Below, one piece after another: positions 31,820-31,935 of a stretch of 64,000 nucleotides of DNA (the stretch's first letter is position 1; the number at the start of each line of letters is the position of its first letter). Under the pieces are notes generated by a model. That model was given only the letters and a program-made list of their open reading frames with translations. It did no database searches and was not told the DNA's origin. A program made the position numbers and the translations under genes. The DNA comes from Dehalococcoides sp. JdFR-54 (GTDB lineage Bacteria > Chloroflexota > Dehalococcoidia > JdFR-54), in contig MTNP01000051.1 of assembly GCA_002011475.1 (NCBI GenBank), positions 8,694-72,693 of the forward strand. Direction: 5' to 3'.

Positions 31820-31935
31820 GTGTCCTCAACCGTGACAGGGGCTTCTGCCAGCACGCTGTCACGAAAGCGCCAGCGTGGCAGACCGCCGGAGCTCGGAGCA
31901 ACATACCTGTTGCTCGGAGTGCTCCTTGAGGACAC
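31820..31935. other. Highly structured non-coding element (multi-stem, possible pseudoknot)
   Basis: 10-bp closing stem GTGTCCTCAA/TTGAGGACAC enclosing two long hairpins and an 8-bp alternative pairing. Confidence 0.6.

Follow-up and report, generated by a model that had tools for sequence, protein, structure and literature searches.

The relaxase gene of a genomic island in Dehalococcoides sp. JdFR-54 is preceded by a 116-nt structured element, which we consider to be probably a new cis-acting 5' leader RNA of the relaxase operon. The element lies on the minus strand of the window, that is, the whole 64,000-nt stretch of contig MTNP01000051.1 that was analyzed, where it fills part of a 218-nt gap between a hicA toxin gene and the relaxase gene. 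Conservation and covariation in homologous loci show the predicted fold itself, a four-way junction in which the loops of two arms pair with each other. The element and what follows it are arranged as listed here.

31820 to 31935, minus strand: structured element, from P1 to P1, four-way junction with kissing loop
31766 to 31819, minus strand: variable, pyrimidine-rich spacer between P1 and the relaxase ATG, 54 nt in the window
30923 to 31765, minus strand: relaxase, Replic_Relax (MOBC-type), PF13814 at E 3.9e-25, 280 aa

The corresponding 136-nt stretch of the minus strand has a predicted folding energy of -64.5 kcal/mol, against -45.5 +/- 3.9 kcal/mol in dinucleotide shuffles (z = -4.9), and none of the 200 shuffles matched it. 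The plus strand of the window copy is its equal (-64.4), and since all pairs of this copy are Watson-Crick, it carries no strand information when taken alone. The covariance model R1 matches the window copy with 138 bits over positions 31818-31937. The initial annotation, made from the sequence alone, had not recognized the family, and a cmscan of Rfam 15 over 30500-33500, on both strands with permissive filters, likewise returned nothing in 31820-31935 even at E<=10; the sole hit of that scan, at 30639-30704 (E 2.1), is a chance match outside the element. There is one copy of the element in its own 1.69-Mb, 94%-complete genome, and it is therefore not a dispersed repeat.

Close relatives of the relaxase were found in metagenomes (about 55, at 48-78% identity), the few named ones being Chloroflexota MAGs. 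From the DNA around 12 of these relatives, together with two loci from a metagenome scan, we obtained 14 further distinct copies of the element. Its nucleotide identity across loci is 76-85%, and the spacer behind it is unalignable. The usual gene order is SSB, HTH_36, a variable cassette, the element, the relaxase, a zinc-ribbon gene and then, where the contig reaches that far, the coupling protein. Another gene comes between the element and the relaxase in three loci, namely a short HTH_36 gene in L178 and L197 and a zinc-ribbon ORF in L004. In every locus the element heads the relaxase-containing unit, regardless of what stands upstream (hicAB, mazE-PIN or nothing). Upstream of the element, the slot that begins after the HTH_36 gene is a hot spot of differing toxin-antitoxin cassettes, occupied by hicAB in the window, L163 and L172 and by mazE-PIN in L164, and free of such cassettes in L162, L165 and L170. 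A protein-coding reading of the element was rejected, as each frame is broken by stops or 1-nt indels in at least 3 of 14 sequences (6 for the GTG-start frame) and no clean 3-periodicity was found.

Outside this group of loci the searches were negative. In 401 same-phylum genomes, the covariance model hit nothing but the copy of the window itself, the 400 others giving no match, and it found zero matches at 160 distant Replic_Relax loci (about 30% identity; Verrucomicrobiota, Acidobacteriota and others). At the distant loci, 81 of 140 upstream regions share coding-looking similarity that reaches within tens of bases of the PF13814 gene. When the intergenic region was searched with blastn in 72,556 plasmid records, only two chance matches of 33-37 nt turned up. 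Seventeen IMG/VR stretches retrieved with a conserved 21-mer pattern were also discarded as chance hits, since none fits the covariance model. Overall, the predicted structured leader is specific to the relaxase subfamily of the window, whose named members come from Chloroflexota.

The four complementarities listed in the initial annotation are all present on the minus strand. The fold was revised using RNAalifold and manual inspection of the divergent copies, with element base 1 at window position 31937, and consists of the following parts.

31926 to 31935, minus strand: 5' strand of P1, GUGUCCUCAA, at the predicted 5' end of the transcript; 10-bp perfect inverted repeat with the 3' strand
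31820 to 31829, minus strand: 3' strand of P1, UUGAGGACAC, which holds a Shine-Dalgarno-like GAGGA (GAGGA/GGGGA in the alignment); P1 pairs element bases 3-12 with 109-118
31895 to 31925, minus strand: P2 arm, GGAGCAC with GU(U)GCUCC and CC with GG, loop (G/A)AGCAA(C/A)A, RNAalifold consensus; element bases 13-19 with 36-43 and 21-22 with 31-32
31865 to 31894, minus strand: P3 arm, GAGC/GCUU and CCGGCG/CGCUGG, with the 8-nt apical loop GUCUGCCA (31876-31883); element bases 44-47 with 70-73 and 49-54 with 63-68
31830 to 31864, minus strand: P4 arm, UCGUGACAG/CUGUCACGG with a 3-bp extension and the 6-nt apical loop GGCAGA (31844-31849); element bases 74-82 with 100-108 and 86-88 with 95-97
31877 to 31882 with 31844 to 31849, minus strand: 6-bp kissing pair, UCUGCC with GGCAGA, element bases 56-61 with 89-94, between the apical loops of the P3 and P4 arms

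P1, P2, P3 and P4 abut with zero linker bases, forming a four-way junction. P1 was read correctly from the start: GTGTCCTCAA (31935-31926) pairs with TTGAGGACAC (31829-31820) at 10 of 10 positions, and the helix is conserved and covaries in the homologues, with 93.9% of cells paired across 15 sequences and compensatory pairs at 7 of 10 positions. The hairpin CTCGGAGCAACA/TGTTGCTCGGAG proposed as P2 can form in the window sequence, but its register GAGCAACA/TGTTGCTC is poorly conserved (77.6% of cells paired) and gives way to other pairing; the adopted P2 is 91-100% paired and has four compensatory pairs. The most conserved part of the whole element is the P2 apex, a block CUCC-AAGCAAAAGG-nAUG that hardly varies even in L178, L197 and L004, which are the copies that diverge most. 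In the proposed P3, CTGCCA...TGGCAG around CGCTG/CAGCG, the outer pairing (UCUGCC/GGCAGA) is kept and covaries, but the inner CGCTG/CAGCG is paired in 74.7% of cells. These P2 and inner-P3 registers were set aside as mostly confined to the window and the copies nearest to it, the inner P3 being without a consistent register. Support for another possible P3 extension, GGCGC/GCGCC, is weaker than for the adopted P3-arm pairing, which is 87.3% paired with compensatory pairs at 7 of 10 positions.

The helix CGTGACAG/CTGTCACG, first taken for a pseudoknot, pairs at 8 of 8 positions and is among the best-supported stems; in the revised fold it forms P4. P4 is paired to 97% in an 11-sequence alignment and to 95% and 88% in later ones. 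The pseudoknot potential as such was borne out, as the loop-loop pairing between P3 and P4 crosses the other helices and is conserved with compensatory change. This kissing pair reaches 100% pairing and covaries at two positions, one changing from G-C to A-U (in four sequences) and the other from C-G to U-A.

Pairing statistics were computed on a MAFFT alignment of 15 sequences, built without structure information, that gives 703 cells in 47 pairs. Of these cells, 92.9% are paired; column shuffles reach 84%, and sliding the partners by 1-3 columns brings the figure down to about 40%. Compensatory changes affect 25 of the 47 pairs and 65 cells, part of this change being shared by descent among the 15 related sequences, and none of 500 shuffles reached any of the five measures. 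Of the two outcomes that the initial annotation had named as refuting it, a known-family hit and a lack of structure conservation, neither was observed, and the conserved structure is accompanied by abundant compensatory change in the homologues. The divergent copies are the clearest cases. In L004, P4 is fully re-written from CGTGACAG/CTGTCACG to CGCCGCCG/CGGCGGCG with pairing kept, and P1 is re-written to GUAGCCCCCA/UGGGGGCUAC in L178 and to GUAGCCCUCA/UGAGGGCUAU in L197, again with pairing kept.

The homologues also carry the strand information that the window copy does not. The paired cells include 72 G.T and 12 A.C combinations. A double-stranded DNA palindrome or a cruciform would be symmetric in this respect, and the excess of G.T indicates that it is the relaxase-sense strand that folds, in single-stranded form. 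With RNA parameters, 13 of the 15 sequences fold better as the sense than as the antisense strand (mean difference, -4.6 kcal/mol). With DNA parameters, the sense-strand advantage is only -0.8 kcal/mol, and many homologues fold weakly (-18 to -27 kcal/mol).

The region 5' of the element has promoter-like features, given here in order of transcription.

31965 to 31970, minus strand: -35-like TTGACA, an invariant box
31940 to 31947, minus strand: A/T-rich -10-like region, read as TGTAGT with a 17-nt spacer or as TAGTAA with a 19-nt spacer

The sequence TTGAC(A/G) occurs in all 14 sequences whose upstream flank was read, at a fixed distance from P1 (about 30 nt; 27-28 nt 5' of the element), and the bases 5' of it vary. 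Either -10-like register puts +1 at base 1-3 of P1. A scan for sigma-70 consensus promoters did not call the site, because neither register is canonical; TGTAGT lacks the A at position 2, and the 19-nt spacer is unusually long. A promoter at the TTGAC(A/G) box is plausible, and we infer that the transcript would start at the first bases of P1. Between the two boxes, at 31948-31958 on the minus strand, there is a conserved ATTTCGTGTCCT-like motif. Its GTGTCC(T) is a direct copy of the start of P1, 16 nt apart, so that two GTGTCCT copies are seen, and in L178 the motif changes partly in parallel with P1 (GTTGCC and GTAGCC). This motif may be an operator or an alternative partner of the P1 3' strand in read-through transcripts.

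At the other end, conservation ends exactly at the 3' strand of P1. In the homologues, the P1-to-ATG spacer ranges from 5 to 52 nt and is unconserved, and the start codon of L172 is only about 8 nt past P1. The window relaxase has no Shine-Dalgarno motif before it, in a genome where most genes seem to rely on one; about 25 of the 41 long ORFs in the window have an SD-like motif. No conserved terminator, anti-terminator pairing or start-site sequestration was found in the homologues, nor any consistent pairing of the element with the start-codon region. An intrinsic terminator after P1 was considered and rejected, given that only about half of the homologues have a U-run there, lying 3-4 nt from the stem, and that the scan did not call it. 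In several copies a near-cognate start (ATG, ATT, ATA or ACG) occurs 2-3 nt past the GAGGAC of P1. In the window such a start opens a 21-codon frame overlapping the relaxase ATG, which is not kept in all copies and could be a coupling uORF.

The gene downstream had been named a relaxase in the initial annotation, and its PF13814 Replic_Relax domain agrees with this. PF13814 belongs to the MOBC relaxase superfamily (PMC5357655), and Replic_Relax has a PD-(D/E)XK nuclease fold with an N-terminal winged helix (PMC3424549, PMC12857230). The other features of the neighborhood are as follows.

31984 to 32449, minus strand: hicA toxin gene (31984-32232, PF07927) and its partner (32222-32449, DUF7387), the variable cassette just upstream of the element
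32509 to 33225, minus strand: HTH_36 / DnaD-like gene, putative replication or DNA-binding protein, syntenic upstream
30639 to 30804, minus strand: zinc-ribbon microprotein gene (30655-30804; 49 aa, very basic) and palindrome, ...CERCGRKIKMGRYCYYCGRYRGLW
26193 to 28466, minus strand: VirD4/TraD-type coupling protein (TrwB_AAD_bind, TraG-D_C), downstream of the element
25702 to 25729, plus strand: left attachment repeat, an exact 28-bp copy of the tRNA-Gly 3' end at 56530-56557
55304 to 56404: tyrosine integrase, 366 aa, at the tRNA end of the island, the coupling protein being at the other end
56531 to 56605: tRNA-Gly(CCC)

The 28-bp direct repeats enclose an island of about 30.8 kb with lower G+C over much of its extent (about 46-56% at 26-34, 36-42 and 46-56 kb). 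The island looks integrative and mobilizable, since it has a relaxase and a coupling protein and no VirB4 or mating-pore gene was found among the proteins scanned. The zinc-ribbon gene shows coding-type variation and is present in every element-bearing locus that reaches far enough downstream. At its stop codon a palindrome, TATCGG-N3/4-CCGATA, is conserved, and in L168 it is a perfect 18-mer, GTATCGGATATCCGATAC. It could serve as a stem, as a site for protein binding or as an alternative oriT. A parS-like sequence, GTTCCACGTGAAAC (30608-30621), adjoins it in the window only and is not kept in nine aligned homologous loci.

The initial annotation had left the choice between a novel cis-regulatory RNA or ribozyme and a structure of single-stranded DNA, and the evidence favors RNA, leaving single-stranded DNA as a lesser rival. 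According to the latter reading, to which we assign a modest, clearly minor probability, the element would be part of an oriT, its hairpins serving the MOBC relaxase for recognition or termination, or a single-strand origin (sso) from which complementary-strand synthesis is primed after transfer, and the adjacent promoter would just drive the relaxase. Strand-specific covariation is equally expected for a functional single DNA strand, and same-sense single-stranded DNA would give the same covariation as RNA. RNA is favored by the promoter-like box at a fixed distance and by a sense-strand advantage that appears with RNA and not with DNA parameters; many of the DNA-parameter folds are weak, without a clear advantage for the sense strand, and the structure begins exactly where the promoter-like box predicts +1.

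The element sits between a leading-region-like block (SSB, a Rep-like HTH_36 gene and toxin-antitoxin) and the transfer genes, and 16 nt upstream of P1 there is a repeated GTGTCCT half-site, as might suit an oriT. The usual polarity of transfer is away from the relaxase gene, with SSB and toxin-antitoxin genes entering first. In that direction, which is inferred here, the antisense strand would be transferred, and on it the 72 G.T combinations become A.C mismatches. There is also a second conserved candidate site, the TATCGG-N3/4-CCGATA palindrome after the zinc-ribbon gene, and distant PF13814 loci have no comparable upstream element, the upstream gene abutting the relaxase gene. An sso is further disfavored by the lack of an RCR Rep gene, as none of Rep_1, Rep_2 and Rep_trans occurs among the neighbors and the Rep-like gene is HTH_36/DnaD-like. 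An Frpo-type single-stranded DNA promoter, in which a long imperfect hairpin ahead of ssb, psiB or anti-defence genes reconstitutes the -35 and -10 boxes, does not fit: TTGACA lies outside the fold, the only -35-like stem sequence, GTGACA in P4, is CGCCGC in L004, and the element is downstream of SSB and faces the relaxase.

A precedent for an oriT beside a MOBC relaxase gene is that of pAD1 TraX, with nic in a large inverted repeat (PMC12857230). The element shares with the oriT2/TraX system of the Enterococcus plasmid pAD1 a MOBC superfamily relaxase, whose gene here starts 54 nt downstream. Both systems show large self-complementarity (about 120-140 bp) beside this gene and short direct repeats nearby, of which only the two GTGTCCT copies are seen here, where a pAD1-type oriT would have a series bound by the relaxase. 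In pAD1 oriT2, the relaxase reportedly bound to direct repeats 70-120 bp from the nic inverted repeat (Francia et al., 2013). The element differs from oriT2 in being strand-asymmetric, in having four helices and loop-loop pairing, and in starting at the predicted transcription start; neither oriT nor sso is known to have a conserved kissing loop or a four-way junction.

A riboswitch-type aptamer is improbable. A small molecule or ion would then stabilize the junction and kissing loop, and P1 would hide GAGGA or otherwise set relaxase translation. Junctions tied by kissing loops are known from purine (L2-L3) and lysine (L2-L3, 6 bp) aptamers, and four-way junctions from the NiCo and yybP (Mn2+) ones. 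The element shares with these a P1-closed multi-helix junction clamped by contact between the apical loops of neighboring arms and a size within their range of about 70-180 nt; moreover, the unpaired bases of its P2 apex are very highly conserved, and in L172 the start codon is so close that P1 would occlude the ribosome site. Nevertheless, no Rfam model matches, the junction has no unpaired linkers from which a conserved pocket could be built, and neither an alternative pairing nor a terminator nor a sequestered SD is conserved as an expression platform, with P1-ATG distances of 5-52 nt. Nor is the gene context metabolic, as a relaxase gene has no obvious metabolite logic.

Another function for a structured RNA at this position would be that of a working relaxosome subunit, in a ribonucleoprotein with the MOBC relaxase and/or the zinc-ribbon microprotein, which we consider highly unlikely. 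If true, a relaxosome with an RNA subunit could help explain DNA recognition or hand-over by a relaxase class for which no covalent intermediate has been seen. The least likely reading is that of double-stranded operator sites for the winged helix of the relaxase or for the HTH_36 protein, the RNA-like structure being a by-product of palindromes: MarR-like winged-helix proteins do bind palindromes, P1 is a perfect 10-bp inverted repeat with 96 bp between its halves and with a GTGTCCT direct repeat upstream of it, but symmetric mismatches are predicted where G.T exceeds A.C 6 to 1, both arms are re-written with complementarity kept (CGTGACAG to CGCCGCCG), a pattern that preserves pairing and not a protein-recognition sequence, and the five helices, nested or crossing, leave no gap in the element.

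In the favored reading as a cis-acting 5' leader RNA, the relaxase-operon transcript would begin with a structured RNA of ~116 nt. The nascent RNA would fold into the linker-free four-way junction, the loops of P3 and P4 would lock through the 6-bp kissing interaction, and the fold would act in cis on how the downstream operon is expressed. The RNA seems likelier to be a platform on which a macromolecule docks than a small-molecule switch, because there is no expression platform, the spacer varies from 5 to 52 nt and the P2 apex is near-invariant. One option is that RNA polymerase docks on the element, leading to processive antitermination, as for put, EAR, conAn2 and canT. Alternatively, a protein encoded by the mobile element itself, either the zinc-ribbon microprotein or the relaxase, might dock and exert feedback control; the basic 49-aa zinc-ribbon protein is a conceivable RNA-binding partner. 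The relaxase gene, having no SD of its own, could also receive help in translation from two buried SD-like motifs, AAGGAG and GAGGA.

The antitermination RNAs put, EAR, conAn2 and canT are cis-acting structured RNAs found right after the promoter, free of a platform and with no fixed distance to the first gene; conAn2 (pLS20) and canT (Tn916) head conjugation operons, and tertiary structure is thought essential for processive antitermination RNAs (PMC11658703, PMC8955417). The element would resemble those of phage HK022 (put), Bacillus (EAR), pLS20 and Tn916 as a structured leader directly after a promoter-like box, at the head of a mobility operon, here the relaxase unit. It has no sequence or model similarity to them, and whereas put consists of two hairpins and canT needs >340 nt, the element is a junction of 116 nt. 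The lineage and the MOBC context are new, and the activity is here only putative. A simple terminator scan over 25700-31000 found no excess over shuffles and no convincing minus-strand site, although the terminators of this lineage may differ; this lack of predicted terminators in the operon, a further difference from the known systems, counts against the antitermination mode.

As in FinP and the traJ leader, control would be exerted at the structured 5' leader of an mRNA for transfer genes that a mobile element carries. Here the leader is a branched junction and not two simple stem-loops, an antisense promoter or partner RNA is not evident, and no FinO/ProQ gene was found among the proteins scanned. 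Taken together, the comparisons place the element as a previously undescribed, well-supported structured-RNA family, probably within a known general category, the leader elements of mobility operons. What is distinctive in it is the combination of four-way junction and kissing loop; its host and relaxase context are unstudied.

To our knowledge, MOBC is the least understood relaxase class; it is restriction-enzyme-like, we know of only one member that has been studied, and of no case in which a covalent intermediate was detected. Nor do we know of any work on conjugative or mobilizable elements of this lineage, in which the named relatives of the relaxase are from Chloroflexota MAGs. A strongly covarying, probable RNA of 116 nt at the head of the relaxase operon offers a concrete handle on how transfer of the island is controlled or executed, and it is small enough to be synthesized. 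The catalogue of structured bacterial RNAs also gains a new, well-supported family with this element. Should it turn out to modify RNA polymerase or to be associated with the relaxosome, those mechanisms would be extended to a new phylum and a new fold.
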